A DNA stretch of 64,000 nucleotides from positions 1 to 64,000 of IMG/VR virus record IMGVR_UViG_3300043447_000710. One strand, 5' to 3'. The notes below the pieces were generated by a model that was given only the letters and a program-made list of their open reading frames with translations, did not search any database and was not told the DNA's origin. Source of the DNA: a virus. Its lineage: Duplodnaviria > Caudoviricetes. Position numbers and translations under genes: made by a program. This document shows, in pieces, positions 11,243-39,063 of the stretch (position 1 is its first letter; each line of letters starts with the position of its first letter).

Positions 11243-11249
11243 AACTAGG

Positions 11250-11734: not shown

Positions 11735-11738
11735 AAAG

Positions 11739-12452: not shown

Positions 12453-12551
12453 GATTAACTCCATTTTTATGTTTACGTGACATCTCCACTACTTCAAGTT
12501 TGATTGCCGGTTTCCATCTAAAGATGGCCTAGCTAACTTACTTTATTAGTA

Positions 12552-12596
12552 GCGGTTAAGTCACATAAAAAGGAAGTCCGCAAGATGCGGACTTCC
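12552..12596 (-). promoter_or_regulatory. hairpin-ACCRC element, copy 9
   Basis: GCGGT-TAAGTCA-CAT-AAAAA-GGAAGTCCGCA aga TGCGGACTTCC. Confidence 0.75.
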
Positions 12597-12601
12597 AATA
12601 C

Positions 12602-12844
12602 TTAATAACGCCCTTCGTAATGGGCGTAATAACATTGAACACCTAGGTGTTCAATGGTTTTGAGCTCCCCAAGGAGCTCTGCTCTGGCTTCCCAGAGCAG
12701 GCCTAGATCTTCGGGATCTAAGCCGAGTTCCGTCTTTCGGAACTCCAGATCGAGCTGCAGCTCGATCTGCGCTACTTGCAAGCGCAGGGCTTGCGCTTGC
12801 AAGTAAATACCGTACGCCTTGCGTACGTTGTAAGTAACTTTCAT
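12602..12844 (-). CDS. hypothetical helical early protein
   Basis: AGGAGAGG RBS; 80 aa. Confidence 0.7.
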   Translation of the reverse strand: MKVTYNVRKAYGIYLQAQALRLQVAQIELQLDLEFRKTELGLDPEDLGLLWEARAELLGELKTIEHLGVQCYYAHYEGRY

Positions 12845-12943
12845 AACCTCTCCTTAGGCTATGTGTTTACAGCTTTTCCTTAACTTCAAGTTCCCTCCCC
12901 GATTCCCATACTCAGATGGTCTAGCAAAGGTACTTTATCCGTA

Positions 12944-12986
12944 GCGGTTAAGCTATATAAAAAGGAAGCCCCTTTACGGGGCTTCC
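12944..12986 (-). promoter_or_regulatory. hairpin-ACCRC element, copy 10
   Basis: GCGGT-TAAGCTA-TAT-AAAAA-GGAAGCCCC tttac GGGGCTTCC. Confidence 0.75.
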
Positions 12987-12993
12987 AAAAAAA

Positions 12994-13317
12994 TTATTTA
13001 ACAAACACCCACTTTACGGGCATTTGTAGGACCTCTGAGGAGGTCCATTTTTCCCCTTCGGCCAGGCGCCGAGGGGTTGTGACCAGGCCGGCTAAGACTT
13101 GGTCAAAACCCCAAACGGGGTTAACCATCACCCGATTAGCGGGGATGGTTACCCCACTAAGGGTGGATAAGATTTCGGCGAAGTCGGCATGGCCGACCGC
13201 CGAGGTGAACTCTTGCTCCGTTAGGAGCACTTTGACCTCTTCCGAGGTCAAAGTTTTGACCAGCACCGGGGTCTCGCCCCAGATGGTGTTTGGTAACGAG
13301 TTCATAACGTACAGCAT
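12994..13317 (-). CDS. acrIII-1: AcrIII-1 / DUF1874 (STIV B116/YddF-like) cA4 ring nuclease, anti-type III CRISPR
   Basis: LYVMNS, FTSAVGH (catalytic His), IPANR and RRLAEG motifs; 107 aa, typical size. Confidence 0.85.
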   Translation of the reverse strand: MLYVMNSLPNTIWGETPVLVKTLTSEEVKVLLTEQEFTSAVGHADFAEILSTLSGVTIPANRVMVNPVWGFDQVLAGLVTTPRRLAEGEKWTSSEVLQMPVKWVFVK

Positions 13318-13418
13318 ACTGCCCTCCTTGGGCTAAAATTTACATGACTTCTGCACTACTTCAAGTTCAATCCCCGGATCTCCTGTTCAAAGGGCCTAGC
13401 AAATCTAGTTTATCCGTA

Positions 13419-13461
13419 GCGGTTTGGTCAGATAAAAAGGAAGCCCCTTTATGGGGCTTCC
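13419..13461 (-). promoter_or_regulatory. hairpin-ACCRC element, copy 11
   Basis: GCGGT-TTGGTCA-GAT-AAAAA-GGAAGCCCC tttat GGGGCTTCC. Confidence 0.75.
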
Positions 13462-13464
13462 AAT

Positions 13465-13818
13465 TTAAAAAAACTCTACGAGTTCTTTTATTAGGTCTAG
13501 ATTACGATCTAGACCATTAAGAACTCTGAGACTTTCGTCCCAGAATTCTTTAATTGTAGGATCGGGGTTATCCCCGAGGACTGCCTCATGCACGAGGAGA
13601 ACCAAATTCTCCTCGGCTTTACTGGGCTTTAGCCCAGTGACTGCATGATTGCCTTCATGCAGTACTTCGAAGCCTTGAACTTCGACAGTCCAAGGCTTAT
13701 TTACTGAGAGGGGATCTAGTCCCCACTCGGCAACAAAAGTTTGGGCGATAACATACGCCCAGAAGGCCCGTTCCCGGAGCCAAATGGCGTATGTTATCGC
13801 CGGAATTAATTCCAGCAT
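13465..13818 (-). CDS. hypothetical early protein
   Basis: 117-aa ORF occupying one repeat unit. Confidence 0.7.
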   Translation of the reverse strand: MLELIPAITYAIWLRERAFWAYVIAQTFVAEWGLDPLSVNKPWTVEVQGFEVLHEGNHAVTGLKPSKAEENLVLLVHEAVLGDNPDPTIKEFWDESLRVLNGLDRNLDLIKELVEFF

Positions 13819-13843
13819 AATTCACCTTGCTACTTCTGCTGTA

Positions 13844-13886
13844 GCGGTAAAGTCGCTGAAAAAGGAAGGAGCCTTGGCTCCTTCCT
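13844..13886 (-). promoter_or_regulatory. hairpin-ACCRC element, copy 12
   Basis: GCGGT-AAAGTCG-CTG-AAAAA-GGAAGGAGCC tt GGCTCCTTCC. Confidence 0.75.
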
Positions 13887-13892
13887 AAAAAA

Positions 13893-14558
13893 TTATTGTT
13901 TAGAGTTCTTATAACTCAGGTAAGTGTCGATCCACTCTGGGATCATCCAGCCCAGTTGGGGGAGGTCTACGACGACGTAGCGCTCCCCATTACCACCAGA
14001 AAAGGCCTTGGTGTCGTCGCCATCGGCGACTAACCACTCCTCTCGACTCCACCGCTCGGATGGATTATCGACAAAGCGATAATCTACCCGAGCAACTGGC
14101 TCGGTAAAGAATATCGTCTCCCAGGTGCATGGGACATCTGTGTACAGATGTCCATTGCCGGCCTCAATTGAGGCCTGTAGGGGTTTTATCCCCTCGTGGA
14201 GTATTGGGATGTCTGGGGTGTGCACCGCTCGGAGTACGAACTCCGACGTGTCCTCAAAATTAAGGGAGTACGCACAGGTGTACTCCTTAGGAATCTCGAC
14301 CTCCGAAAAGGCCTTCAAGCCGTGTTTCGGCTTGGAAGTAAAGAATTCCCACACTATAGTGGGAACAGCGTAACAGTAGAAGGGAGTTAACTCCTCCCCT
14401 TTACTGTTAAAAAATATCATCTCCCGCTGAGGGCGGAATTCGCCCTCATGGAGAATCTTCATGTAATCGTCCCGGCGGACGAACAGCAGAGGGCTGCTGT
14501 TCGCTTGAGTGAGGCGCCCAAGCACGACTTGTTCGGTTCCGTTGAAATCTAAATTCAT
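13893..14558 (-). CDS. hypothetical early protein
   Basis: 221-aa ORF occupying one repeat unit. Confidence 0.75.
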   Translation of the reverse strand: MNLDFNGTEQVVLGRLTQANSSPLLFVRRDDYMKILHEGEFRPQREMIFFNSKGEELTPFYCYAVPTIVWEFFTSKPKHGLKAFSEVEIPKEYTCAYSLNFEDTSEFVLRAVHTPDIPILHEGIKPLQASIEAGNGHLYTDVPCTWETIFFTEPVARVDYRFVDNPSERWSREEWLVADGDDTKAFSGGNGERYVVVDLPQLGWMIPEWIDTYLSYKNSKQ

Positions 14559-14573
14559 ATTTCTACCTTTTTA

Positions 14574-14622
14574 GCGGTAAGGACGCTAAAAAAGGAAGAG
14601 CTAAATATAGCTCTTCCTTTTT
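14574..14622 (-). promoter_or_regulatory. hairpin-ACCRC element, copy 13
   Basis: GCGGT-AAGGACG-CTA-AAAAAGGAAGAGCTA aata TAGCTCTTCCTTTTT. Confidence 0.75.
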
Positions 14623-14624
14623 AA

Positions 14625-14726
14625 TTAAGGCTCGATACTTGATGGCCGCCAACCATCTTTAAATCGACGAACGGCATAGCCGGCAAACTGCTCGGCTATG
14701 TTTCGGCACTTTTGAAAAGGTGTCAT
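14625..14726 (-). CDS. small protein (33 aa), absent from the ORF track
   Basis: GGAGA RBS; MTPFQKCRNIAEQFAGYAVRRFKDGWRPSSIEP; fills one repeat unit. Confidence 0.6.
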   Translation of the reverse strand: MTPFQKCRNIAEQFAGYAVRRFKDGWRPSSIEP

Positions 14727-14767
14727 AAGAATCTCCAATTAATTTGTGTGTAAACAACTTACCTATA

Positions 14768-14809
14768 GCGGTTAAGTCACTAAAAAAGGAAGGGGCTAAG
14801 CCCCTTCCT
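14768..14809 (-). promoter_or_regulatory. hairpin-ACCRC element, copy 14
   Basis: GCGGT-TAAGTCA-CTA-AAAAA-GGAAGGGGCT a AGCCCCTTCC. Confidence 0.75.
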
Positions 14810-14814
14810 AAAAA

Positions 14815-15183
14815 TTAATTAAAGATAGTAACGACTATCTGGGCTTCCACCCAGATAACTTCGTCTGCTTTGGGGCTGCCCAACCCCGAAGCGTTTAACT
14901 CTTTCCCGGCGACGACGGGCGCTGAGCCCTCGTCCCAGGACAATGTTATATGTGGGGTGTTGGGGCTTGTTAAGCCCTCGGGCAATACTGCCCGGAGGCA
15001 GTCTGTTTCCTGCCCCTTAAAGTAGGGCCCCAACCCTACTTTAATAATCTCGCCCTCCTGGGCGAGCAGATCTTCAGGCAGTTCGCCAAAGGCTAGGGTT
15101 ACTCCCCAGCCTTGAGGTTTGTTATTAAACGTACCTTCTGTAGAAGGTGCCTTTAATAAAACCGCTTTGATTAAACCTTTCAT
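14815..15183 (-). CDS. 2H phosphoesterase-like protein
   Basis: start re-called at 15183 (GGAGTCAACACC-ATG); second motif PHITLS intact, first motif degenerate (WGVTLAFG). Confidence 0.55.
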   Translation of the reverse strand: MKGLIKAVLLKAPSTEGTFNNKPQGWGVTLAFGELPEDLLAQEGEIIKVGLGPYFKGQETDCLRAVLPEGLTSPNTPHITLSWDEGSAPVVAGKELNASGLGSPKADEVIWVEAQIVVTIFN

Positions 15184-15214
15184 GGTGTTGACTCCACATC
15201 TATATTTACATGAG

Positions 15215-15256
15215 GTGGTAACCTCATATAAAAAGGAAGGGGATTTCTCCCCTTCC
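15215..15256 (-). promoter_or_regulatory. hairpin-ACCRC element, copy 15
   Basis: GTGGT-AACCTCA-TAT-AAAAA-GGAAGGGGA tttc TCCCCTTCC. Confidence 0.75.
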
Positions 15257-23174: not shown

Positions 23175-25237
23175 TAACCCAACCTCTCAAGCGCAGTCGC
23201 TGCTAATCCATCTACATCTCCAAAAGCAACGATCTCGTTAAGGGCTTCTGTTTTTTCAGCGGCACTCAAACTACTAGTCATTAACGAACCTACGGCGCGT
23301 CTTGTATCGCCGTCTCTAGCCAAAGCTAAAAGCTGTGTTTTAGTGTTTGCCTGCGCTAAGTAATTAGCAAACGGCGGCGAATACGTAGCTACCGTCTGCT
23401 TTAAAAAATCCGCTCCTAAGCTGGCAATTCTAGAAACTTCGTTCGAACGCGCAGGGTCAGAAGGCCGAACGTTACTGTAGTCTCTGCCAGCAATGCTAGT
23501 TACTAATGATTCAAAAACATTGCCGACCAAACTTGGGGCGCCGCCCACTTCTGTAGAATTACTAAGCGAGTTAGCACTTGCTAACTGAGATGTTGGCTGT
23601 TGGCGATCGGCAGTCGCAGCCTCTACTGGTGCTTTATCCTTAGAGTTTATAGCGAGCGGATAATCAGTGACGAACATATCTATGGCATAGTAAGCGCGGT
23701 CTACATGTACGAATTGAAATCTTACTGCTGTAATAACGCCTGTATACCTAATAAAGTCACCTAACCCCGCCCCTGTTAACTTAAAACTACTTTGATTGTT
23801 AGCTGGTTTTACTTCTAAAGTAACCACTCGTCCTGGCTGTACTAGCTCTCGATCGATGGTTTTAGCTACGTCAATCGCTCCTTCGAGGGCACTAACATTA
23901 GGGTTGTCTACTTTAAAGTTAGAACCGACTTCGTAAAATTTGGGTACGTTAGGCGTTCCTGCTCTATAAGCATAAGCGACGCTCTCATTACCAATTAACG
24001 CCCCAACTACGGTTAATTTAGTACCGCCGACGCCAATTGTCTGCACTACCGGGCCTGCCCCAGGAACTACTTGCATCTTATGTCGCATTGTAGTATGAAC
24101 CGGAATCCCAGTTTTACTTTCAGGAACGTTCCAGCCGTTAGCTCTAGACTCCCTAGCCGGCGCAAACGCAAATACAAACGACTTATAAATTTCTTCTGAA
24201 TCTTTGTAAATGATTCGATAAAAAGCAGTTTTTGGATCGTAACTGTCTGCTAACTCTAAATCTTTAGACGCATCTTCTCGTGCAGCTTCAGTTCTGAGTT
24301 TAGTTATTAGCTTATCGTTTAATGGTTTATAACCGTCAGTAAGTACGTTTATAGGCAGGTTGTATTTTAAGCCGTCGTTATCTATAGCTAAGTAGTAAGG
24401 TAAGTTATCTTCGTCTACGATAATTCCCGAAATCTTAAGCGTCTTTATAGGTTTTTTTAATTGGTCGTAGCTCTTGAGAGCATCGGTTCGATATCTCTCT
24501 AGGGTAGCTGTGTCTTTTACTAAATTTCCGCCAATCCCGACGTAAAATTTTAAGGTTGGAGTTCTTATCAACCCACCTATCTCTTCCGCGTTTTTAGGAC
24601 TTTTACCATCTTCGCCTTTGACAAACTGACCTATACCTCTTCCATATCTAGCATAAACTTCTTTAGCTTGAGTTTCTAGATCGGAACTTTTAGGTTTGGT
24701 ATTATTAGACGTTGCTGTATTATTAGTTAATGGCCTTGCCAAACTAGCGTAGAACAAAAAGTTATTTTGCCCTTCAGATATTATATAGACAACGTTGTTA
24801 GCAGTTACTGCAATATCCGTAATTAAAAATCCATTAGATTGATTAGCATCCATCTCTGCCAGCGATCTAATCGCACTATCTCTTACCTTCTCAAGAAGTT
24901 TACTATCGTCCGGTAAAGTTAGAAGCGTACTTTTAGTCGCGACGGCAACAAATTTAGGAGGTGTTGCTACACTACTACTTACACTACTAGCAACTAATAA
25001 AAGTCCGGTTCCATCAACTTGTCTTCTAAAGCCTAAATAATCACCGTAATCTTTCAAAGCTTGTTGAATCCAACCGTAGTATAAGTTTTTACTACTTTGA
25101 GTAAAACTTTGAGAACTAAAAACGTCTTTAGATTTTGCGATCTTATACTCATTGGCGTTTAAACCTTCATTAGTATTTAAAAACACATTCTCTGTATTTT
25201 TAGTAGAAGCATAAGCAACTAAAACTTCATCAGCCAT
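23174..25237 (-). CDS. tail/baseplate protein with P2 gpU-like (tube initiator) region
   Basis: HKMQVVPGAGPVVQTIGVGGTKLTVVG motif; structural operon context. Confidence 0.45.
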   Translation of the reverse strand: MADEVLVAYASTKNTENVFLNTNEGLNANEYKIAKSKDVFSSQSFTQSSKNLYYGWIQQALKDYGDYLGFRRQVDGTGLLLVASSVSSSVATPPKFVAVATKSTLLTLPDDSKLLEKVRDSAIRSLAEMDANQSNGFLITDIAVTANNVVYIISEGQNNFLFYASLARPLTNNTATSNNTKPKSSDLETQAKEVYARYGRGIGQFVKGEDGKSPKNAEEIGGLIRTPTLKFYVGIGGNLVKDTATLERYRTDALKSYDQLKKPIKTLKISGIIVDEDNLPYYLAIDNDGLKYNLPINVLTDGYKPLNDKLITKLRTEAAREDASKDLELADSYDPKTAFYRIIYKDSEEIYKSFVFAFAPARESRANGWNVPESKTGIPVHTTMRHKMQVVPGAGPVVQTIGVGGTKLTVVGALIGNESVAYAYRAGTPNVPKFYEVGSNFKVDNPNVSALEGAIDVAKTIDRELVQPGRVVTLEVKPANNQSSFKLTGAGLGDFIRYTGVITAVRFQFVHVDRAYYAIDMFVTDYPLAINSKDKAPVEAATADRQQPTSQLASANSLSNSTEVGGAPSLVGNVFESLVTSIAGRDYSNVRPSDPARSNEVSRIASLGADFLKQTVATYSPPFANYLAQANTKTQLLALARDGDTRRAVGSLMTSSLSAAEKTEALNEIVAFGDVDGLAATALERLG

Positions 25238-25802
25238 GTAATGCCAGCTCCTTAACTTCAGCTAATTTACTAGTACACCAAGCATGACGAAGCTTAACTG
25301 TCTGAGCTCCTAATAATGCATGGTGGTTGCCTTCAGTTTCTAAAGACGCCGGCCAATCTAAAGTACTTAAGCCTAATTGCTGTTCGCAGAACTGAACCGT
25401 ATCGTTGCAATACATTGGGTAACCCTTAGGTAAATCGGCCATCGTCCCAAATATCTGGCACAAACACAACCAATCATACGCCGCCCAATCAGCCCAAAAC
25501 TCTGGAGTACCGTATAAATCCGGCGAGCAAAAACTTAAGATGTCATTTTTAATCTGTCGTTTATATTTCCAGGCTAATGACAAAGATTTTTTATTTGGAG
25601 ACAGCGACCAGTCGCTTAAGTTTAGATCTTTACCAGGCAAACAAGAAAGCACGTTTTCTACTATCCACTCATTAGCTCTGCGCGGATCGAACTCTCTACT
25701 GACCGCGTAATACTCTCTGCCGTCCTCAGCCACGATTCCAATCGAGATAAGATCTAACGTCTTATGGTTCTCTATAAATTCACAATCTATAAAATAGCGC
25801 AT
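25230..25802 (-). CDS. DEDDh 3'-5' exoribonuclease, Rv2179c/DUF5051-like
   Basis: YFIDCEF, LISIGIVAEDGREYYAV, WAAYDW and HHAL motifs. Confidence 0.85.
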   Translation of the reverse strand: MRYFIDCEFIENHKTLDLISIGIVAEDGREYYAVSREFDPRRANEWIVENVLSCLPGKDLNLSDWSLSPNKKSLSLAWKYKRQIKNDILSFCSPDLYGTPEFWADWAAYDWLCLCQIFGTMADLPKGYPMYCNDTVQFCEQQLGLSTLDWPASLETEGNHHALLGAQTVKLRHAWCTSKLAEVKELALHG

Positions 25803-26592: not shown

Positions 26593-29500
26593 CCTCTACA
26601 TCTAAATCTCTAAAAGGATTAGCTTTTAGCCAGCCGCTAGCAAACTGACCGGCTAAAGTATCTTCGCCTACTTTTAAAGTCGCTGTATACTCAACTTCAG
26701 TTTCGCTATCTACAGGAAGACTAGTGCTGTTAAGAAAGTCTTCGATCGCGGCATCTGCAGTCCCGATAGCTAAGCTGGGCAACTGTCTTAGCGCTTCAAC
26801 TTGATAATCTTCCTCAGCTTCTCCTCTAGCCCCAAACCGCCGATCTGTAGTCAAAGAACTAGCAACCGTTGCTAACAAAGCAGTTCCTAACTCTGCTAAA
26901 TAAGACCTGCCGCCTGCTTTTATATCGCTGCCCGCGACTCTATGGCTGAGTCTAGAAATCGATTCAAATAGTATCTCGCTAGTTACGCCTTTAAGCGTGC
27001 CGAATACTTTACCTTCACTAGCGACAGTCTGCCGCAAACGGTCTACTTGAAACAAAGCCGCGCTACTCCAACGACGATGCTCGCCCATCTCTGCGACTTG
27101 AGCTACTGCTTGCGCCGCTCCATAAGCGTGCTCGGTAAGATTGCTGTCGGTTTGACTGCTTGTTATAAATAACGCCAAACCAGGAGCTAAGAAAGCGCTC
27201 GCCATTGAATGCCGAGCGGAAGTCTTAGCCGTCTTAGCGTCTGCGTCTAGCTTTGTATTGGCTTCTGTAATTGCCGCAGTCTTAACCTCTTGCGATCTAG
27301 CTGCTATCTTAGCTCCTTCTGCAATTAAAAATTCAGGTACGGTTCCAGCTTCTTTAGCTTTACTATAATTTTCACTAAATTCTACAGCGTCTAAACTAGG
27401 AGCTTCCTGAGCGCTCGCCGAAAACATTAAAGAGTCTTCGCTTTTTCGCATTTGGGCGACACCACCTAGAAAGTGAGAAAGTTCTTGCCAGCCACTAGTC
27501 TTACCGTCTCCTTTTGCCATAGCAATCGCAAACATCTCACTAGCTTTTGCTTTGATAGAGCTGTCAGCATCGCTAAGCATGTTATTAAAAATTCCAGCTA
27601 CTTGCTCGGCTTGTCTGTAAGCGCGCATTGTTTCGATCGGCACGCCGCCGTCGCTATCTAACACCCCTTTACCATAAGTGCTTTCAATCCTTTCTTTGAC
27701 ATCGTGCATCGCCGCAAACAACTGAGATCCAGCCTCATAGCTCATTACCGCTCGCTGGCGAGGATCTGTAATCTGATCTCTAGTAGACGAAATCAATAAG
27801 CCCTCAATAGCCAAACTAGAGCGATTGACAAAATCACGAAACTCAGTCGCCCCTTCGATCGAGTCGAATCGCAAGTGCTTGATAACCGCTGCGGTTTCGC
27901 GCATTCCTACTAAGTCTTCAGCAGTAATTCCTGTAGCTTTTAAATTGTGATAGATAAAGTTAGTTGTCGCCCGCTGCCAAAAGTTTGCTTTAATCGCGTT
28001 AAAGCTAGCTTCACTACCATCCGTGTCTAACCCTAATTGCTTGGCTGCAGCAATACGCTGTTCTGCGGTTTGAAGTAAGTCCGCACCAGTAACCGGATCG
28101 AAATACAAGCTCTCAGCGGCATTTATCGCTCTCTCGTTTAAGCCATCCCCGAGCCCGTACTCTAACCTGACATCTTGTAAAGCCTTAGCTGTAAATCCTT
28201 CGACCGAGCCGCCGCTACCATCGCTCACAAAACTAGCCTTAGCTAAGTTTCTAAAGCTTTCAAAATCAACCTCTTTAAAAGCCATCACTTCTGCAGAGCG
28301 CTGTGCCGTACTCATAGCTAATAAGTCGATGACTGAATGAGCTACAAAAGCGTCCGGCTCTAACATTGCCGCATACTTACTATCGCCAGTGCTTTTAGCC
28401 AGCATTTGCATTCGTTCGTACCGCTGTCTTAAAAATTCATAGCTGCCGTCGCCCTTACCATTCAACCCAATTAACTTCTCTGCTGCTCCAGTAGAAGTGA
28501 TACCTAGGTAGTCGTTAAGTAAAAACAAGGCTCCAAAAGCAGTAACCTTAGATCGTTGCTGTGTTGTTTCACCAGGTAAGTGAAAGATGCTCTCTCCAGC
28601 GTCTTGCCCTAAGAACTTGCGAAGAGCTGGCAATCTTTCCTCATCAGTCGTGTACTCGCTAGTAAGCAAATCATAGGCAGTCATGTCGCCATACGTTCGT
28701 TCGGTCATAATCGAGTCCAACATTCCTCGATCCAACTTCTGTTTTAAGCTGTCGCGAATAGACTGTTGAACGTTGGCTAACATTCCGGTTAGTGCTTGAG
28801 CGCGATTAAAGCTTGCCGCTCCCAACCTTTCAGGATTCGCAAAGGTTTGTACGAGTAGTTCTTTAGCTTGTCTGGCCTTATCAGCTTCGAAACTATTTTC
28901 CCAATCGCCTCCCGCCGGAAAAGCTCTTTCTAACGCAGAAGTCATAACTGATGTAAACTTGTCACCGTCAGCTTCAGCATAAGTACTTTGAACTCTGCCA
29001 TTAGTGTAGACCTCACTTAACGCTCTAGCGACAGAAGCTTTAGAACCCAGTAATGTAATAGCATTGTAAGCCTCGCCGATTAAGTTCGTACCAGCAGCCC
29101 CAATAGTCATCGATAGTGCTGTAAAAGCTTTATTGCTTAAAGCCGTACCTCCGGCATTGCTGACAAATTTAGCAATACCAGCCAACGCCCCGCTTAAAGC
29201 CGTTTCAGAATTAGTTACCATTAAGGTTTTGTCTAAAAGCTCTGTATGCGAATAGGCTAATAAGGCTTCAGTGCTAGAATTTTCTATTGTGGTACGTAAG
29301 GCAGTTCTGACCTTACCGTCGTAATTCTCAATTCCTGCTAACAGACTAGTTCTAGCAGCAGCTAAAAATTCTGGGGAGTTATCGTTTTTTAAGGCTATGG
29401 GTTTGAGCACTCCTCTGTGAAACTCAGCTACGCTTTCAATAGTTCGTAAGTTCAGATCGCCTGCATTAGTAACGCTTTTGTCTAAATCTTCTAATCCTGG

Positions 29501-32500
29501 CAACACGCCACGATGTTGCTCGATTGCGTTGTAGACTCTAGCACTACTAAAGACTCTAGCTTCTTCACTTAAAAAAGCTAGCGGGATACCTGTATAGGCA
29601 GCGACATGTCGCCGCATCCCAGCCTCAGCAGTTTTACCGATAGCTTCGGTTTGTTCTAAAAGTTCGCCGATAGCTACTTTCTTGTCTGCTAAAGCTTTAC
29701 TTGTAAGTTTATCGTAGCTATCTATTTCTGAAATTTGCGATTTTAGAAATTCAACTTCTTCCGCGCCAATAATATAGCCGTTATGTTTGTTACGTACTTC
29801 AGTGAGCTTTTCAGTAGCTAATTCGCGCTTGCCTAAACTACGCTCTTCTAACTCCGCCTGACTAATTTCTGGTAACGTTACTAGCTCTAAGCCGCCATTC
29901 GCTTTCAGAGTTTCGATTGTAGACTGGGCGTGCGCGAGTTTAAGGCTATCTAAAATAAATTCACTGGTCCTAGAATCTACTAGGTGCTGATTCTTTTCTA
30001 ATACTTTTTGCCATTCCTGAGAATCTTTAACACTCGCCGCTGCAATAAATGCAGCTTCAGCTTCTCGCAAGCGCTTACCTATAACCGAAGTCGTAAGGTG
30101 TTGCGGTTCGATCCTAGAATACTTACTAACTAACTCAGTTACAAACTCCGCTCCTACAGCATCTTGGCTGCGGTCTAGCATTCCCATTAAGGAATGTTGG
30201 AGCATACGAGCGGTCGCCGCAGTTCGATCTTTTTTTACCCGGCGCTCGAACGCATCTAGAAACTCTATAGCTTTAGCAAATGGCGAACTAGCGCGAATAG
30301 CGGCCGCAAACTGTTTGCTATTAGAAGTTCGTCTGATTAATAACTGATGAGTTTTGTTTAAATCTTCTCCGGTTAGACCCAAAAAGTAATTTAAGGAGTC
30401 TAGGGTAGACGTAGATTTAGTACGTTCGCTAATGGTTTCTATAGTTGGTGAAAAGTTAACTATAGCTGGAGACTCAGGTAGTTTGACAGCTTTATTTAAG
30501 AACTCAGGATTCTCTAAAGTGTAAATATTATGTAGTAATTTATCTGCATCTACGTATTCATTTTTCTGTAGTTTTTCTAGGCTTGAGACCAAACTCTCTT
30601 TGATAGCATTAGCTTTAGCGATTTTCGAGCGCTCGTTTTTAAATTCAATCTCAGCTAAGCGTTTAGCATACTTAGGCACAAAGTATTCTTCATACAGGCT
30701 CATTCGTTTTTGTAAGTGCTTGCGAGTTAAGTCGCGCTCTTTCTTCTGCTCTAATAAGTCTACGTAGCTATGAATCTCTTTTTCATAACGCCCGATTACT
30801 GCGTAACTATCGCCGTCAAAGTCCCCACCTTGAGAACTAAAGCGGCCGTAAATCGGAAGTAAAACAGTCGTTGCATTGCGCTTAGAGTCTAGAACTACAG
30901 CCGTGCCCATGTCTTTAGCTGCTTGATTCAACTCATTAACGGACATAACAGAATAACTTTGATCTAACTGAGAGGCAGCGCTAGGCCCCCCAGCTCTAAG
31001 TACTAGTACGGTATCCTTCCCATAATTCTTTCCTTCTAAGGCACCGAGTCTGCGTAAAGCACTTTGGGTTAAAGCTGATGTAAAGCGAGAACCTAAGGCT
31101 AGTTCGTCACCGCCAAGCAAGTAGCTAGCTACAGCAGTACTAGACACTCCACTGGTTTTAGTTTTTTCACCAAACGAACGTTGGGCTAAAGCTCCAGCTA
31201 AAGCTTCGTCTACTAGAGACCTGTTGACGATAGCTAATCTTTGAACTTCTTTAAGTGCTTCAAACTCACTACTGCTGATAGTACCGTCAGACTTCTGAAT
31301 TTTTTCTATTACTTCAAAATAATTAGGCAGAATCTCGTCCAATTCTCTGCGGTGCCGAATGATTCGAGGAACGAAGTTTTCAAACTCGGTTGGCAATTGA
31401 GTTAATATATCGTTGCCTAAATACAGTAAGCTTTGTCCTAACAGAGCCTTACCTTTAACACCTGACTCTAGAAACTTAACATGATAGTTGCCGTCGTCTA
31501 AAGCCAAAGCTTGAAGCTGTGGCATTAATATCGCTCGACTGGTGTGTAAGGTATCATAAATCCTAGCAGCCTTGTCAGCAGCAGTATTATCTCCACTAAG
31601 CCGATACCCAACTTCTGCTTTTTTGAAACTCAGAGCTTGCGCTCTTAAATTCTCAATATGCGAACTTTCGTTATAACCTAAAGCTCCCGCAATCTTACTT
31701 TCTAAAGCTATGTCTGACTCTAGCGCGTAACGGTCTAAAAGCGCAGACAAATTGCGAGCAGCTCCGCCACGCAAGCTTCCACTTTGGCTAGAGCTCAACT
31801 TTAACAAGTTTAAAGCGTGTTCGTAAACTACATCACCTTTAGAACTGACTTGATTGGCTAGATCTAAATATTGAGAGCCGGCTCTGTCTATAAACCAACC
31901 TATATGAGCGCCACCAGCATTATCAGCTATGGTAGTTGCTAAAGCTTTGACTTGTTGGTAAAACTCACTCCCAGAAGCCGCATCGAAATAACTGACTCTA
32001 GAACCTTCAAATAATACGTCGCCACTGGCTAACGGAGTCCCTGACTCACTAGTTCTAAATAGATCTTTATCTCGCAAGAACTCAAACACTTGAATGTTGG
32101 CGTTTACGTCAGCTAAAGCTTCGTGCGCCATATAAGTTCCATAGTCGCCGCTGGCTAGTAAAGCTCTAGCATTTTCATCGCCGGCTCTAGCTAAGTCTCT
32201 AAGATTTACCCGCTCGCTAGCTTTGTAGACATTTCCTAAAGAGTGTTTGGTGCTAGCAATCTCTCTCTTTAATTTAGGTCTATCTACGTCATTAACCGTA
32301 TCTATAGTTCTAAACGTACTTAAATCTAGACCTAACTTAGCAAATTCAGGAGTTAAAGTTGGAATATCAAACTCTCTAACGTTGTGACCGACTAAGGCAG
32401 CGTCTCGATAGCTACCACTCAGAAGTCTTGTAACTTCTTGTAGAGCACTATTTAAACTATCAAACTGTCCGGGCTTGTTAGCCTGCCAAGCAATTTCGGT

Positions 32501-35500
32501 ACGATTTTGTCCGTCAGAGAACACAAACGCTATTTCTGAAATCGAGTCGCTAGGATAATAACGAGGATCGCTTTTAGGAAAACGCTTGTCCATAAGTCCT
32601 GAAGTTTCGATGTCAAAGAACACGAACTTAGTGCCCAGCTCGTTCTTACGTCCAGAAAATCCAGTCGAGTCATCTAAGCGCCGCCGGTCGAAAAGCCCTG
32701 CTAAGGCTAAAGCTCGCTCGCGCAACTGCAAACTTTCGCTACCTGAATAGAAAGAAATCGTTTCTCCTAACAATTTACCAGTAGTAGCTAATCTTTCTAA
32801 AGCACTAGCGTCTCCACTAGTTACGGCGCGGGCATAAGTATCGAAGTAGTTATTCTCCCCAAAAACTCCTAGACTTGCGTGTATCTGACTGGTATCTTTT
32901 AAACCACCTATAGCCATTCGGTAGTCTGCAACGCTTTGAGACCCCGCAAAGGGTGAGATGAAATTTACACTTTCTACACCTCCTGTATTGGCAAATTTTA
33001 CTAACAATCTGTAAGCCGCAGCTACTTCAGTTAGTTCGTTAGGATCGCTAACGTAGCCTCGCATCCTATCGATTTGCTGCTTACTCAGTGCTAAGGAGTA
33101 ATGATATTCAAGATTAGCACTATCGCTAGAACCCGCAGCTTGTTGGATTTTAGAAGGAGCCACTCGAACGCCAATCTGGAAAGGAATCGAAGCTTCTGAT
33201 GCTGCATATACGTCGGCCGCTCTAGCTACTATCGCTTGATAAACATCGCCGCTACGATCTCTATCAGTCAGGTTTCCGGCGCGGTACTTTTCTTTAAGTT
33301 TATAAATCTCTGTTTCTTTTACTAACGCATTACTGCCGCTTTTACGAAATTCAGCTTTTGATTTGAATAATAAGTCCATTGCTGCTTGAGAATGTTTTTG
33401 CCCAAACAGAATCTCTTCGTTAACCAACCCAGTATTGCGATCGATTAAGTTTAGTTCTAGCTTAGAACCTAATAAAGGCGCCGTTGCAATCTGCTGTCTG
33501 CTGGAGTCTAATACCTGCAAACTAAGGCCGAACAAACTAGACACTACCGAAGCAGCGCGTACCGTAGCAGAACCCTGGTTGAAGCTCCGTACTCCTTTAA
33601 TAGTTTCTGCATCTTTACCGGCTGCTGTAAATAAGCCTACTACCTTTTCAATAAATCTGTTATCCCCGGCTTCTAACGCAAGGACTAAAGTCTCTTGTAA
33701 TTGTGCGACCGGCGCTAACGTACCTAAACTAGAGTACTTACCTGTTTTACTGTCTATTAGATTGAATAAGCCTGAGTTGTTTATAAACAGTCCGGCATTC
33801 TTTGTTAAAACGTCAGAACTGCCAATGCTGTCTTCAAACCCTGCCTTTTTAAAAGAGGTTGTTAATAACGCTTTTAGCTTTTGACTTTGAGCTTCTAATT
33901 TAAGCCGCTCTACTGGGTCTTTACTTTTAGAGCTTAAATCAGCTGTAAAGTAATTTGCAAACAACGCAGTAGCTAACTTGTCAGTACGCAATCGTTGCAC
34001 GAAGGCTTGAGCTGTGTCTGCAGTAGTCAGTACGTCTAAGCCAGACTCGTAATTAAATCCTTTAAGCGAAGCGCTAGCAGCCATCGAGTAAATCTCATTA
34101 TCGTTGGCAGTTCTAGAAGATAAGCCTAGCCCGCTAAGCGTGCGATCGTAATAGTCAAAAATACCAGACTCATCAAACCGTGCCGGACCTTTAACGTTTT
34201 CAACGCCAGGACGCACCGCCCCGTTAAACAAAATCGTATAGCTAACATGGCCTACCAACCTTCCGTCTAACTCAGTGAAATTTAATATATCGTTAGTAAC
34301 TGCGACTCCCTCCTGCACGTCTCGAAGACGTCCAGAAATCTTAATTGCCGCTCTAGCTGCTTTAGTAAAAGCTCCTTTCTCATCGGCATATGGAGCTAAA
34401 GCTACATATAGTCTGGAGCTGTCTCCGTCAAACGTTCCGTACTGAGTAAAACTACCGCCATCGTCAAAGCCGTATAGACCAGGCTGTAACGTGACTTTCA
34501 TGGCACCTTCTTGAGATAGCGAGATTCCTCGAATAAATTTAAACTTGTCCTTGACTTTTAAATTAACTGCTTTGCGTACGTCTTTGTTTTCCCATAATTG
34601 CTCTGCAGTTAAGTCAGAGTCATCTAAATAGGATTGTAATACGTTATTTCGGTACGTGTCGATCGCATTTAAAGTTTTAGCGTGTAATAATTCTTGTTCT
34701 CCATAGTAAATGAAACGTCCCGGAGCAAACGCTTTTTGTAGCAACGCCCGTTGGCGATCGCTAGCAATATTAGCTGCGTGTAATTTTCCACCAACAGCAT
34801 CATAACTACTAACACTTTCAATTTGAATTTTAGTGTACTGCTCGTAGCCGTAATAACTTTGATGTTTGGCATTAACGTGCATAAAGTCAGAGAGCTGATG
34901 CAAACCAGTACCGATCAGCACCCGTTTCAACTTGGAATTAGTAGCAAAACCTCTTAGCTCAGCTTGTGGGTTGGCATCGTTAATTCTTGCCATAGTAGTT
35001 GGGTCTTCCCCGTTAGCTACTGCAGTTTGTAAAGCCGCAAACTGCAATGGCGCTAATACCGTATCGACGTTCGCAGAAATTGCTTCTTCTCGGCGCAAGT
35101 TAAGTAATTTACCATTAACACTTTCGTAATATTTACTTAGGTCGTTTTGCTGTAAGAGATCTTTATAAAATTCAGACGAGTATTCGATTGCCGGCTTAGT
35201 TCCAGTAAGGTTCTTTAATCGCTGGGGAATTTGCTCGGCTTTACGGTAGGGAACTAGTAATATCGATTGGCTAGAAGTTTCTAAATAGAGCTTTTGCTGT
35301 AGCTCTTTTAACCAATCTTCTTTATCTTTATACCCGTCGAGCTCGGCTCCTAATTTGTCTAAGGTAGTAGTAGCTAGCTGTTTGCTGCCAGAAAACAAAG
35401 TAGCGATGTCATAAAAAGTAGTTGTTTCTGCAGCCATAGATTCTAATTGTGAGTCGTGATGGCGGCGATCGTAAATCTTTAGATTGCTAGTCTGCGCGGC

Positions 35501-37036
35501 AATCCCAGCATAAGCCACACCTATAGGCATCGAACCGCTGCCGTGTTTGTAAGTTCCTCCAAGCTGTAATAAAGAATTCGAGCCATCTGCTAAAGTTAAA
35601 GGGCTGCGATCTGGTAAATAATAAGCTCGTCTAGCTAGTTGCTGAGCGCCTGAAAAGTTAGCTTCGTGCGGCTGTAAATACGGAGACATTAATTGCTCGA
35701 TTAGATTTTTACGCCCGCCTTGAATCTGCTGTTTTAATAGCGCTTCATATCTACTTTGCAGCAGTAAGTTTCCTTGCCAACTAGAGGTAAGAATTGCTTG
35801 CTTTAAATTTGCAAAGGCGTCTACTCGCAACGAACGCCCGTTGATATCGGTAACTATTTGCGGATCTAAAAGTATCTGAGCTAGATTGCTAACTACTTTA
35901 GCGCCTACGCCCTGTCTTAAAGTATCGGTATTGCCTAACGGTCGCAGAACCTTATCGATGCCACTACTGTAAATATCTGCTAATCGAGCGGCACTTACTT
36001 GGGAATACTCTTGAGACCCAGATAAACTTAGAAATCTGGCTTTTAGCATTTCGCGAAAAGCCGTAACCTCTGCGCCCCGTTCTGCAAATGTATTGACATA
36101 GCTACTAAAAGTAGTATCAGCTCCGATTAACTTGCCTAAGAATTTGTCTATTTCTAAATATTGTTGGCTGCTACTATAGGTCTGCCGATCTTGAAGAAAC
36201 TGCCTAAATGCTAAGCTACGAGCTTGCTGTAGTAATATTGGCTGCTGCATTACGTAAGTGCGCACTATACCAACTGTAGTTTCAACCGCACTTTGCTCTG
36301 TCTTACCTAAGTAGCTAGCGCCAATATATCTATAGCTAGGTAGATCTAAAATGCCACCGCCTACAGTCGCTGCAAACTCGAATGTCTTGCTTTTACTTCT
36401 TAATAAATCTCTTTCTCCACTTTGAAGCAGTACTTCACCAGTACTTAAAATTTCGATATCTGGTACGCGCACGCTCAATCGCCCGTCCTTGGTTTGCGAG
36501 ATACTAATATCGATGTTGTAATCGTCTTTTAGCTGTCGTTGTAAAGAGTTCATCCCCTTAGCTAAAAAGGTAGGTTCTACAAAGGTACGACTGCGATCGC
36601 CAGATAATATAGTAGTTACGCTAGCCGATCGTTCGAGGTCGCCACTCATAACAAAACTAGCGTTAATAAAAATAGACTGAGGCTTGGCTAAATCCCCGGC
36701 TAAAGTTTGAGTTTGGGGTGCGCTCAAACCTATCGTCGGACTACCGTATAAGCCTTTAACATACCCGTAAGTATCGTCGCGAATAGAAGTGAGATTGAGA
36801 TTGCTGCTGGGAACTAGACTAGTTAATTTGCGCCCTAGATCCTGCTGGTCTACAAAAGGTTCGTAACTACCGTCTGTCGTATAACTTCCAGAAAGCCGGC
36901 TCTTAATAATATCGCTTAAAACGGACTCGTCGTTGACGCCTCTATAGCTGTCGTTAACACCATCGACAAACTCGCCAATCCGTAAAGACGTACGATTGAT
37001 AGATGTTGAAAATAAATCTAGGATCGGATCTGACAT
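26570..37036 (-). CDS. giant single-chain RNA polymerase with inserted DEDDh exonuclease (putative virion RNAP, possibly tape-measure fused)
   Basis: VLRAGGP..QGGDFDGD (30809-30826); beta-like RPGVENVKG (~34187-34213); FFDIETSG..GHNVREFD..HEALAD (~32100-32630); late-gene context. Confidence 0.75.
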   Translation of the reverse strand: MSDPILDLFSTSINRTSLRIGEFVDGVNDSYRGVNDESVLSDIIKSRLSGSYTTDGSYEPFVDQQDLGRKLTSLVPSSNLNLTSIRDDTYGYVKGLYGSPTIGLSAPQTQTLAGDLAKPQSIFINASFVMSGDLERSASVTTILSGDRSRTFVEPTFLAKGMNSLQRQLKDDYNIDISISQTKDGRLSVRVPDIEILSTGEVLLQSGERDLLRSKSKTFEFAATVGGGILDLPSYRYIGASYLGKTEQSAVETTVGIVRTYVMQQPILLQQARSLAFRQFLQDRQTYSSSQQYLEIDKFLGKLIGADTTFSSYVNTFAERGAEVTAFREMLKARFLSLSGSQEYSQVSAARLADIYSSGIDKVLRPLGNTDTLRQGVGAKVVSNLAQILLDPQIVTDINGRSLRVDAFANLKQAILTSSWQGNLLLQSRYEALLKQQIQGGRKNLIEQLMSPYLQPHEANFSGAQQLARRAYYLPDRSPLTLADGSNSLLQLGGTYKHGSGSMPIGVAYAGIAAQTSNLKIYDRRHHDSQLESMAAETTTFYDIATLFSGSKQLATTTLDKLGAELDGYKDKEDWLKELQQKLYLETSSQSILLVPYRKAEQIPQRLKNLTGTKPAIEYSSEFYKDLLQQNDLSKYYESVNGKLLNLRREEAISANVDTVLAPLQFAALQTAVANGEDPTTMARINDANPQAELRGFATNSKLKRVLIGTGLHQLSDFMHVNAKHQSYYGYEQYTKIQIESVSSYDAVGGKLHAANIASDRQRALLQKAFAPGRFIYYGEQELLHAKTLNAIDTYRNNVLQSYLDDSDLTAEQLWENKDVRKAVNLKVKDKFKFIRGISLSQEGAMKVTLQPGLYGFDDGGSFTQYGTFDGDSSRLYVALAPYADEKGAFTKAARAAIKISGRLRDVQEGVAVTNDILNFTELDGRLVGHVSYTILFNGAVRPGVENVKGPARFDESGIFDYYDRTLSGLGLSSRTANDNEIYSMAASASLKGFNYESGLDVLTTADTAQAFVQRLRTDKLATALFANYFTADLSSKSKDPVERLKLEAQSQKLKALLTTSFKKAGFEDSIGSSDVLTKNAGLFINNSGLFNLIDSKTGKYSSLGTLAPVAQLQETLVLALEAGDNRFIEKVVGLFTAAGKDAETIKGVRSFNQGSATVRAASVVSSLFGLSLQVLDSSRQQIATAPLLGSKLELNLIDRNTGLVNEEILFGQKHSQAAMDLLFKSKAEFRKSGSNALVKETEIYKLKEKYRAGNLTDRDRSGDVYQAIVARAADVYAASEASIPFQIGVRVAPSKIQQAAGSSDSANLEYHYSLALSKQQIDRMRGYVSDPNELTEVAAAYRLLVKFANTGGVESVNFISPFAGSQSVADYRMAIGGLKDTSQIHASLGVFGENNYFDTYARAVTSGDASALERLATTGKLLGETISFYSGSESLQLRERALALAGLFDRRRLDDSTGFSGRKNELGTKFVFFDIETSGLMDKRFPKSDPRYYPSDSISEIAFVFSDGQNRTEIAWQANKPGQFDSLNSALQEVTRLLSGSYRDAALVGHNVREFDIPTLTPEFAKLGLDLSTFRTIDTVNDVDRPKLKREIASTKHSLGNVYKASERVNLRDLARAGDENARALLASGDYGTYMAHEALADVNANIQVFEFLRDKDLFRTSESGTPLASGDVLFEGSRVSYFDAASGSEFYQQVKALATTIADNAGGAHIGWFIDRAGSQYLDLANQVSSKGDVVYEHALNLLKLSSSQSGSLRGGAARNLSALLDRYALESDIALESKIAGALGYNESSHIENLRAQALSFKKAEVGYRLSGDNTAADKAARIYDTLHTSRAILMPQLQALALDDGNYHVKFLESGVKGKALLGQSLLYLGNDILTQLPTEFENFVPRIIRHRRELDEILPNYFEVIEKIQKSDGTISSSEFEALKEVQRLAIVNRSLVDEALAGALAQRSFGEKTKTSGVSSTAVASYLLGGDELALGSRFTSALTQSALRRLGALEGKNYGKDTVLVLRAGGPSAASQLDQSYSVMSVNELNQAAKDMGTAVVLDSKRNATTVLLPIYGRFSSQGGDFDGDSYAVIGRYEKEIHSYVDLLEQKKERDLTRKHLQKRMSLYEEYFVPKYAKRLAEIEFKNERSKIAKANAIKESLVSSLEKLQKNEYVDADKLLHNIYTLENPEFLNKAVKLPESPAIVNFSPTIETISERTKSTSTLDSLNYFLGLTGEDLNKTHQLLIRRTSNSKQFAAAIRASSPFAKAIEFLDAFERRVKKDRTAATARMLQHSLMGMLDRSQDAVGAEFVTELVSKYSRIEPQHLTTSVIGKRLREAEAAFIAAASVKDSQEWQKVLEKNQHLVDSRTSEFILDSLKLAHAQSTIETLKANGGLELVTLPEISQAELEERSLGKRELATEKLTEVRNKHNGYIIGAEEVEFLKSQISEIDSYDKLTSKALADKKVAIGELLEQTEAIGKTAEAGMRRHVAAYTGIPLAFLSEEARVFSSARVYNAIEQHRGVLPGLEDLDKSVTNAGDLNLRTIESVAEFHRGVLKPIALKNDNSPEFLAAARTSLLAGIENYDGKVRTALRTTIENSSTEALLAYSHTELLDKTLMVTNSETALSGALAGIAKFVSNAGGTALSNKAFTALSMTIGAAGTNLIGEAYNAITLLGSKASVARALSEVYTNGRVQSTYAEADGDKFTSVMTSALERAFPAGGDWENSFEADKARQAKELLVQTFANPERLGAASFNRAQALTGMLANVQQSIRDSLKQKLDRGMLDSIMTERTYGDMTAYDLLTSEYTTDEERLPALRKFLGQDAGESIFHLPGETTQQRSKVTAFGALFLLNDYLGITSTGAAEKLIGLNGKGDGSYEFLRQRYERMQMLAKSTGDSKYAAMLEPDAFVAHSVIDLLAMSTAQRSAEVMAFKEVDFESFRNLAKASFVSDGSGGSVEGFTAKALQDVRLEYGLGDGLNERAINAAESLYFDPVTGADLLQTAEQRIAAAKQLGLDTDGSEASFNAIKANFWQRATTNFIYHNLKATGITAEDLVGMRETAAVIKHLRFDSIEGATEFRDFVNRSSLAIEGLLISSTRDQITDPRQRAVMSYEAGSQLFAAMHDVKERIESTYGKGVLDSDGGVPIETMRAYRQAEQVAGIFNNMLSDADSSIKAKASEMFAIAMAKGDGKTSGWQELSHFLGGVAQMRKSEDSLMFSASAQEAPSLDAVEFSENYSKAKEAGTVPEFLIAEGAKIAARSQEVKTAAITEANTKLDADAKTAKTSARHSMASAFLAPGLALFITSSQTDSNLTEHAYGAAQAVAQVAEMGEHRRWSSAALFQVDRLRQTVASEGKVFGTLKGVTSEILFESISRLSHRVAGSDIKAGGRSYLAELGTALLATVASSLTTDRRFGARGEAEEDYQVEALRQLPSLAIGTADAAIEDFLNSTSLPVDSETEVEYTATLKVGEDTLAGQFASGWLKANPFRDLDVEVEDFESA

Positions 37037-37843: not shown

Positions 37844-38650
37844 ATGCAAGACGTTTTAAAGATCGACCGGAGTATGTTAGCTACGGGTAAAACCGAAGTG
37901 GAAATCCGCGCTCCTAAATATTCAGATCTGCGTAAAGCCCGCAAACTGTTTCCTTACGACCGCCCAGACCGAGATCGACTGGGTTACATCCCAGAAGATC
38001 TGATGCTGGCTTCGCTGTTAGTAACGGTAAACGGCAAAGCAGTTGACGAAAGTACCGATCTAATAGACCGGTTGGCAGAACTCCCGTTAGCAGACAAGCA
38101 AGCTTTGTACGCTTTAGTTAACGAGACTTTCTACCTATCTAAAGAACGAGCTAATGTCGCTGCAGACAACGGCAAAGCCGCACGTTATGAAGCCTATGAG
38201 TTTCGTTCGATCCCTGCTAACGAAATGCCGAGTGGCAAAGAAGTTAAGTTTAATATGCCCAATACTGCGGCGCAAATTCAATGCGAGCAGAACTATCCAG
38301 GCTTAGATAAAAGCGGAGTAGGTCTAGAAGAGTATATGTTCGCTTACTGCTTGACAGGTAACGAAGGAGCTGATAAGTTAGCGGTTCTTGACGATTGGGA
38401 AATCGAAGACGTGCAGTATGCTGTCAATTACTATTTAGCCTGCGCTTCGATCGATGAAGATACTCGGGTCAACTTAAAAAAGACAGCCCGTACGCTAAAA
38501 CAGCAATTGCGCGCGAAGTCTATCTCCAAACCCTTACCAGTAGTTCGGGCTGTCAGTCCGAAACAACTAGAAATCCCACTGCAACAGACGACCAGAGAAG
38601 CAGAGGACGTAGCGGACTTGGAAGCTTTGCTGTCGAAGCCGAAGTCTTAG
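37844..38650 (+). CDS. tail assembly chaperone (gpG-like)
   Basis: two internal repeats (VEIRAPK..DL..LPLADKQAL / VKFNMPN..WEIEDVQY); contains the A_AAA_AAG slippery site. Confidence 0.65.
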   Translation: MQDVLKIDRSMLATGKTEVEIRAPKYSDLRKARKLFPYDRPDRDRLGYIPEDLMLASLLVTVNGKAVDESTDLIDRLAELPLADKQALYALVNETFYLSKERANVAADNGKAARYEAYEFRSIPANEMPSGKEVKFNMPNTAAQIQCEQNYPGLDKSGVGLEEYMFAYCLTGNEGADKLAVLDDWEIEDVQYAVNYYLACASIDEDTRVNLKKTARTLKQQLRAKSISKPLPVVRAVSPKQLEIPLQQTTREAEDVADLEALLSKPKS

Positions 38651-39063
38651 CTCTACTCTGGGGGCGGCTACTTTTTGATTTAGATTGGGACGTCAGAGCC
38701 GATCGTCAAGGATTCGCTAGTGATGAAGATTACTTGCAAGCAATTCTCGAACGCGATCGAATCATCGACAGCAGAAATAATGAAGTCTCTCAGGTCTACG
38801 ACCTTAAAGCCTACGTAACTGTCAATCAACTAGTCTCAATTTCTTTAGAAAGTTGGATCGGTAAAAATAGCTGGCAGCAAGCTCACGGTTACGGCGACGC
38901 GATTAAAACGGCTTTGCTGTCTGAAGTCAATGCTATCCTCGAAGCTAGAGATCGCGACCGTCGCGACCGCGAGCAAAAAGCTAAACTTGAAACTGCTAAG
39001 CTCTCTGGATCTAATGTCGAACTTCCCCACAAGCTTGGCGGCATTCAAAACTATCTAAGCTAA
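38482..39063 (+). CDS. tail assembly chaperone -1 frameshift extension (gpGT-like)
   Basis: the -1 frame is open from 38458 to 39063; A_AAA_AAG at 38476-38482; the 38734 TTG ORF is its tail. Confidence 0.6.
   Translation, partial: DSPYAKTAIAREVYLQTLTSSSGCQSETTRNPTATDDQRSRGRSGLGSFAVEAEVLALLWGRLLFDLDWDVRADRQGFASDEDYLQAILERDRIIDSRNNEVSQVYDLKAYVTVNQLVSISLESWIGKNSWQQAHGYGDAIKTALLSEVNAILEARDRDRRDREQKAKLETAKLSGSNVELPHKLGGIQNYLS

Follow-up and report, generated by a model that had tools for sequence, protein, structure and literature searches.

Two-barrel RNA polymerases that travel in the virion, or are fused to the tape measure, are already known from phages. The gp66 protein of phi14:2, a crAss-like phage, is virion-packaged and prefers single-stranded DNA templates (10.1101/2020.03.07.982082), and in the Thermus phage P23-45 the virion two-barrel polymerase gp96 is fused to the tape-measure protein (PMC10770324). 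Here, we describe P0001, the product of a giant open reading frame (ORF) in a 64,000-nucleotide window covering positions 1 to 64,000 of the IMG/VR record IMGVR_UViG_3300043447_000710, a 152.6-kb contig of a Microcystis-phage-like myovirus. Like gp66 and the eukaryotic QDE-1/RdRP enzymes (PF05183), P0001 appears to be a single-chain two-barrel polymerase with a DbDGD-type motif; unlike gp66 and QDE-1, neither of which contains an exonuclease domain, it carries an embedded DEDDh 3'-5' exonuclease, and this is the new element. To our knowledge, no two-barrel RNA polymerase with an exonuclease domain of its own has been described, and no DEDDh domain inside such an enzyme turned up in the literature searched. 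The favored reading, to which we assign a probability of about 0.6, is that P0001 couples a two-barrel architecture to an active exonuclease that processes 3' ends in cis.

The exonuclease domain is real, its D-E-D-H-D catalytic set is intact, and it looks active. The three motifs that an initial annotation had singled out all lie in the same frame of the giant ORF, in DEDDh order, and the histidine stands five residues before the last aspartate, which assigns the domain to the DEDDh subtype. D1475, E1477, D1557, H1638 and D1643 are invariant in all nine exonuclease-bearing representatives, down to ∼27% identity over the 1440-2120 segment. Sequence comparisons place the domain far beyond chance similarity: PHROG families 192 and 403 ('DNA polymerase exonuclease subunit') match with E-values of 3.5e-11 and 4.9e-8, and the family profile matches solved DEDDh chains with an E-value of 3.8e-9 (Plex9.1 TREX1 homologue, a DnaQ domain). 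The single-sequence Pfam scores for RNase_T (15.8 bits, cut-off 24) and RNase_H_2 (20.9 bits, cut-off 22) both fall below the curated cut-offs, marking the domain as divergent.

Structurally, an AlphaFold model of residues 1440-2120, built from a 37-row alignment, reaches a mean predicted local distance difference test score (pLDDT) of 83, mostly 86-98 across the exonuclease. The predicted fold superposes on the DnaQ domain of S. thermophilus (8h2f; Z 13.5, 148 of 172 residues, root-mean-square deviation (rmsd) 2.9 Å), TREX1 (Z 13.2), Exonuclease I (Z 13.0), Pol III epsilon (Z 12.2-12.8), RNase T (Z 12.5) and oligoribonuclease (Z ∼11). Foldseek gives a probability of 1.00 for the DEDDh fold, and the matched atlas clusters carry PF00929. 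The DnaQ/RNase T identity proposed from the motifs is borne out by this domain check (Z 12-13.5). Set against the DnaQ-family DEDDh exonucleases as a group (Pol III epsilon, TREX1/Plex9.1, RNase T, Cas2-DEDDh and the S. thermophilus DnaQ domain), P0001 shares the fold (Z 11-13.5, rmsd ∼3 Å, 140-166 residues aligned) and all five catalytic residues, but is only 17-25% identical, and its domain sits inside a polymerase of the unrelated two-barrel class.

The regions on either side of the exonuclease very probably form the two-barrel polymerase. Upstream, a second AlphaFold model (residues 430-1460, pLDDT 68.5, good across model residues 110-860) was compared with 48,161 representative chains, and all alignments longer than 200 residues (n = 8, Z 5.2-6.6) are to RNA polymerase subunits: the phiKZ and AR9 non-virion polymerases, plant Pol IV, Pol I, bacterial beta, and the African swine fever virus (ASFV) and vaccinia enzymes. 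A further structure comparison returns second-largest polymerase subunits as 49 of the 50 best solved-structure entries (Z 5.0-6.6, ∼243-306 residues aligned), drawn from bacteria, archaea, eukaryotes and phages and covering mostly the C-terminal half of Rpb2/beta. The beta/Rpb2 assignment follows from the matches being exclusively polymerase subunits, not from any single Z value. Within this module, the K, Q, Q, R, K and N of the K599-P615 motif are invariant in the 25 rows of family alignment A6, and the motif also occurs in the split or distant forms P0010 and P0011. The RPGVENVKGP segment, kept as RxGxxxxKGP in the A6 consensus, lies in a low-confidence loop between strands of the module and may be equivalent to the GRHGNKG loop of beta.

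Downstream, GD[FYW]DGD is invariant in 31 of 31 family members and is preceded by ∼58 residues by an RxGxP motif whose R, G and P are nearly invariant. We take these two elements to be counterparts of NADFDGD and NRAP in beta' and of the DbDGD motif in RdRPs. The model of residues 1440-2120 contains six strands around RAGGP and GGDFDGD (pLDDT 63-88). With this model Foldseek retrieves M. tuberculosis beta' (5uh5_D, E 7e-3, probability 0.69) in match lists that the exonuclease dominates, and the PF05183 RdRP family, to be read as a lead only, is both the nearest named language-model cluster (cosine 0.78) and the most recurrent weak Pfam match (best E 0.058). The initial annotation had set the exonuclease between the barrel halves of an RNA polymerase, flanked by a beta-like motif near position 34200 and by GGDFDGD. 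The positions agree, the upstream half is backed by its beta/Rpb2-like matches and the downstream half by RxGxP and GD[FYW]DGD, while for the beta'-type barrel fold itself the pointers are weak. An EF-hand-type calcium loop was also considered for DFDGDSY and rejected: its twelfth loop position is R rather than acidic, and the context is a beta-strand. In alignments A3 and A5, large insertions occur just before RxGxP (around P0001 residues ∼2000-2010; ∼290 aa in P0008, ∼770 aa in P0017 and ∼950 aa in P0024), showing that the region ahead of the catalytic barrel tolerates big inserts.

The same flanks could instead be those of a nuclease-bearing tape-measure or ejection protein, GD[FYW]DGD then being some other metal site. 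No sequence profile of any polymerase family matches them significantly, the Z values of the beta-like module are as low as 5.0-6.6, and BFVD returns many weak tape-measure matches. We nevertheless regard this explanation as very improbable: it leaves unexplained a structural match list made up almost entirely of second-largest polymerase subunits over ∼243-306 residues, the (near-)invariance of GD[FYW]DGD and RxGxP in a family that has diverged to 16-25% identity, and the independent pointers to RdRP and beta'. We infer that P0001 synthesizes RNA. The conserved C-terminal region (residues 2456-3471) has no match in a Pfam search and is a candidate for the remaining polymerase elements together with a tape-measure-like part.

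The exonuclease occupies the connector between the two barrels, which in P0001 is ∼660 residues long. In other two-barrel polymerases, this connector makes up the clamp that lies over both the DNA and the RNA-DNA hybrid (PMC10770324). All nine carriers share one insertion point, between the beta-like module and the helical region leading to the beta'-type barrel. The giant family as a whole is rare: a set of 1.84 billion proteins yields 26 representatives, most of them 3,000-4,300 aa long with few exceptions, and there are three further IMG/VR loci; P0001 has five full-length close homologues (3,129-3,673 aa). The exonuclease profile matches only nine of the ∼31 representatives, and in P0008 the equivalent gap measures ∼183 residues and contains no DEDD motifs. 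In a quick maximum-likelihood tree, with support from the Shimodaira-Hasegawa-like approximate likelihood ratio test (SH-aLRT), seven carriers form one clade, and the other two, P0013 and P0014, group with four exonuclease-less members. This distribution requires two changes on the tree and is more clustered than any of 500 label shuffles (0/500); most simply, the insert is clade-specific, with one gain and one loss. The presence or absence of the insert among homologues, raised by the initial annotation, is therefore informative: relatives without it exist, it was probably lost once, and the exonuclease is an accessory rather than the core of the enzyme.

Fragments of P0001 find no tblastn match in 50,697 phage records; the distant member P0009 is the sole query that reaches Ma-LMM01-type phages. 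The cultured relatives, the Microcystis phages Ma-LMM01 (gp080) and MaMV and a Microcoleus phage, carry an HKD/PLD-type motif rather than the exonuclease. An N-terminal HxK(x)4D...G(T/S)xN motif is found in Ma-LMM01 gp080 (L006, aa ∼287) and at loci L002 (P0010) and L003 (P0011); it matches PLDc_2 with an E-value of 0.0095, and UniProt names gp080 a 'PLD phosphodiesterase domain-containing protein'. Since distant members carry the HKD/PLD motif and others DEDDh, different branches of the family bear different hydrolase modules. L002 encodes the giant protein in two separate ORFs (1,467 and 2,186 aa).

This replacement of DEDDh by HKD/PLD in distant members suggests interchangeable accessory enzymes on an ejected scaffold, and an insert gained once and probably lost once fits the same idea, in which the exonuclease would be an autonomous injected effector that attacks host or defense nucleic acids (DNA or RNA 3' ends, oligonucleotide signals) independently of the polymerase. 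The idea is quite improbable, however, because the domain sits at a fixed inter-barrel point in nine of nine carriers, whereas cargo domains are usually terminal, and no close stand-alone relative of it was found in the searches made. Nor do we know of DEDDh enzymes as degraders of cyclic signals. PF00929 has no match in the phage's own 152.6-kb record at E <= 0.01, and a narrow exonuclease profile run against the six-frame flanks of the exonuclease-less relatives and the window finds no compensating free-standing copy.

Under the favored reading of polymerase and cis-acting exonuclease, P0001 would enter the cell with the phage DNA as a single-chain two-barrel RNA polymerase, and the exonuclease would act after ejection on a 3' end handled by that polymerase. 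As to which end, DNA 3'-end trimming for template preparation is tentatively favored over RNA proofreading, at somewhat less than even odds: the exonuclease would trim or resect DNA 3' ends of the entering genome, and single-stranded template would thereby be made or tidied. Three considerations favor a DNA substrate. In fold and profile, the closest neighbors (the DnaQ domain, TREX1/Plex9.1 and epsilon) are exonucleases of DNA; the related polymerases prefer single-stranded DNA, gp66 transcribing single-stranded and not double-stranded DNA and QDE-1 showing the same preference (10.1101/2020.03.07.982082); and a domain located at the clamp would lie nearer the DNA than the secondary channel from which backtracked RNA emerges. 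All genes between 1 and 37 kb lie on the minus strand. If the left end enters first, a 3'-5' exonuclease would remove the minus strand and expose the template strand of these genes, a resection geometry consistent with gene orientation.

RNA proofreading or backtrack rescue, in which the exonuclease would remove misincorporated or extruded RNA 3' ends and replace Gre/TFIIS-assisted cleavage, is possible though unlikely. DEDDh domains are the classical polymerase proofreaders, the best fold matches include epsilon and polymerase exonuclease domains, and RNase T, oligoribonuclease and 3'hExo also reach Z 11-12.5; we noticed no Gre/TFIIS-like factor in the window, and a two-barrel DNA polymerase, PolD, does pair with a separate proofreading exonuclease (PMC6355029, PMC4996933). 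Against it, the insert lies in the clamp-building connector (PMC10770324) and, as far as this geometry can be deduced, not by the secondary channel; relatives without the exonuclease function without it; and it is hard to see why a short-lived early polymerase should need much fidelity. Two-barrel RNA synthesis coupled to a dedicated DEDDh proofreader of misincorporated or backtracked RNA 3' ends is judged slightly less probable still; if true, P0001 would be the first cellular-type (two-barrel) RNA polymerase with a separate, DNA-polymerase-style proofreading domain. The share left after DNA and RNA trimming falls to an inactive exonuclease domain or to the autonomous effector.

Being paired with a proofreading-type exonuclease is a typical trait of DNA polymerases, and archaeal PolD shows that a two-barrel core can make DNA (PMC7708050). 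Apart from PolD (DP2 core and DP1), no two-barrel polymerase is known to work with a dedicated 3'-5' exonuclease (PMC6355029). PolD differs from P0001 in that DP1 is a separate subunit and not a DEDDh enzyme, and in that PolD makes DNA. DP1 is an Mre11-like phosphodiesterase. It is highly improbable that P0001 is itself a DNA polymerase of the two-barrel class, proofread by its DEDDh domain as a phage equivalent of PolD: the giant gene belongs to the structural module, the exonuclease is missing from most of the family, and the nearest named leads are RNA polymerases.

The favored reading, a two-barrel polymerase with an exonuclease acting in cis, has a number of findings weighing against it. 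For the polymerase, every Z of the beta-like module falls below 8, a range where similarity may reflect a mere common arrangement; searches of the flanks against Pfam, PHROG and PDB sequences, with single sequences and family profiles, find no match to a characterized polymerase; the lists of all four structure searches with the model of residues 1440-2120 are filled by the exonuclease, so that the barrel fold was barely probed; and residues 1-1200 of P23-45 gp96 align to family alignments A5 and A6 with an hhalign probability of 0.2-0.3%. For the coupling, the pTM is 0.50, at which inter-domain geometry is unreliable and the placement of the exonuclease relative to the active site is not fixed, and the existence of exonuclease-less relatives, with one lineage that probably lost the domain, means that it is not essential to the enzyme. 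For the substrate and its delivery, RNase T and oligoribonuclease score nearly as well as the DNA exonucleases, so that the matches do not single out one substrate, and virion packaging is presumed from genomic context.

That context suggests a place for P0001 in the virion. Immediately past the giant gene come the genes for the portal, the head protease, the major head protein and the tail sheath, and a tail-assembly-chaperone-like gene stands beside it in divergent orientation (Table 1). The latter matches phrog_166 'tail protein' (E 1.5e-5), and its slip site is correctly phased, with the -1 frame open for 193 codons; a programmed -1 frameshift is a hallmark of tail assembly chaperones. Homologues adjoin the giant gene in the same divergent orientation at L001, L003 and Ma-LMM01 (gp081), and L007 and L008 have genes of 263-264 aa at this position; the linkage of the two genes is thus kept throughout the family. 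The chaperone-like gene starts the head operon, rather than lying between the tube gene and a tape-measure gene. The 152.6-kb record contains no PF10145 tape-measure family member at E <= 0.01. This absence of a canonical tape measure and the chaperone synteny together suggest that P0001 is a tail-internal, tape-measure-like protein; an ORF with an M23 peptidase domain after the tube gene is an alternative tape-measure candidate. P0001 would be made with the virion and tail proteins and is probably ejected with the DNA, in this respect resembling P23-45 gp96.

Table 1. Positions in the 64,000-nucleotide window of P0001, its parts and the other features discussed
Feature	Positions	Strand	Residues	Remarks
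Giant ORF P0001	26570-37036	minus	3,488 aa	putative tail-associated single-chain two-barrel RNA polymerase
beta/Rpb2-like module	33140-35656	minus	∼461-1299	presumed home of double-psi beta-barrel (DPBB) DPBB-B
K599-x-E-Q-I-x-Q-R-L-K-N-x-x-G-x-[KR]-P615	35192-35242	minus	599-615	family-invariant motif, alignment A6
RPGVENVKGP	34184-34213	minus	942-951	'beta-like motif' of the initial annotation
Helical linker			∼1300-1460	
DEDDh (DnaQ/RNase T-fold) 3'-5' exonuclease domain	32033-32653	minus	∼1462-1668	
Exo I FVFFDIETSG	32597-32626	minus	1471-1480	D1475, E1477
Exo II LVGHNVREFDIP	32360-32395	minus	1548-1559	D1557
Exo III MAHEALADV	32105-32131	minus	1636-1644	H1638, D1643; H-x4-D
Helical and sheet region			∼1690-1955	
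Putative beta'-type barrel DPBB-A	30794-31150	minus	∼1963-2081	carries RAGGP and GGDFDGD
R2014-A-G-G-P2018	30983-30997	minus	2014-2018	in putative DPBB-A
G2070-G-D-F-D-G-D2076	30809-30829	minus	2070-2076	in putative DPBB-A
Variable helical stretch			∼2100-2450	
Conserved C-terminal region	26624-29671	minus	2456-3471	kept in P0008 and other members
Tail-assembly-chaperone-like gene	37844-39063	plus		A_AAA_AAG -1 slippery site 38476-38482; products 268 aa and ∼406 aa
Free-standing DEDD-type exonuclease gene	25230-25802	minus	190 aa	
Candidate second polymerase ORF	3001-8910	minus	1,969 aa	FRRMP...NFGDLDGD (aa 1596-1600, 4111-4125)
GGAAG/CTTCC hairpins	2933-15256			twelve; thirteenth at 20189
M23 peptidase ORF	51718-54831			
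Transposase gene	61548-62789	minus		

Of the described enzymes, P23-45 gp96 is closest in layout, being a giant tail-module protein whose N-terminal part is a single-chain two-barrel polymerase with a DFDGD motif, ahead of a long C-terminal part, and P23-45 likewise has a second, smaller polymerase, for which the window offers a candidate with RRMP...NFGDLDGD. The two differ in the inter-barrel connector, which is short, disordered and clamp-less in gp96 and exonuclease-bearing in P0001, and in their phages: P23-45 is a siphovirus, whereas the P0001 phage is a myovirus. The tape-measure role of P0001 is deduced only from chaperone synteny. P0001 is thus analogous in architecture to gp96 and not a member of its family.

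Ma-LMM01 gp080 (3,562 aa; YP_851094) belongs to the same giant family as P0001, placed there through the P0009 tblastn match and not through P0001. It shares the beta-like module (BFVD E 1.1e-6 over 1,006 columns), an LGDFDGD motif at aa 2537, and the synteny with the chaperone-like gene and head genes; it differs in having no DEDDh domain but an N-terminal HKD/PLD-type motif, and its annotation, like that of other cultured members, is 'hypothetical protein'. Microcystis phages are missing from the phage-polymerase survey of PMC10770324. Ma-LMM01 infection is reported to leave host transcription almost untouched, with phage promoters read as host sigma-70 type and transcription ascribed to the host polymerase (PMC5780444). 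The rare giant family would add probable phage-borne RNA polymerases, including one in the model phage of bloom-forming Microcystis, and a virion-delivered polymerase, if true, would change the host-polymerase picture of Ma-LMM01 transcription. Should the exonuclease work with the polymerase, P0001 would represent either a new form of template preparation for an injected polymerase or a new form of transcript proofreading.

Several other features of the contig were recorded. A free-standing 190-aa gene, which shares the strand of the giant ORF and lies three genes downstream from it, matches PF16473 (Rv2179c-like 3'-5' exoribonuclease) with an E-value of 1.1e-9, above the cut-off, and carries the PHROG label 'Rnase H'; it is a second DEDD-type exonuclease of the same gene run, and a search of the 10 kb around the giant gene finds no counterpart in L001-L003 or in Ma-LMM01. 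The 1,969-aa ORF has FRRMP ∼45 residues before NFGDLDGD and may encode a second two-barrel polymerase, of the non-virion kind, as P23-45 does. Pfam, PHROG and PDB give no match to it, tblastn against the phage collection is empty, and L008 has a weak homologue (E 3.7e-8) downstream of its giant gene. The portal of this P0013-bearing contig (L008, 5241-6536) has a weak precomputed match to PF21919 (P23-45_portal_barrel), a faint hint linking these phages to the P23-45 group. A transposase gene (phrog_506, E 4.8e-102) is also present in the phage contig. Finally, the early minus-strand region contains twelve perfect GGAAG-stem-loop-CTTCC hairpins, and a thirteenth lies at 20189 (13 seen against 0.96 expected; 0/100 shuffles reach 13). 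One of them stands directly past the stop codon of the 1,969-aa ORF, and the hairpins are candidate terminators or promoters for phage polymerases.

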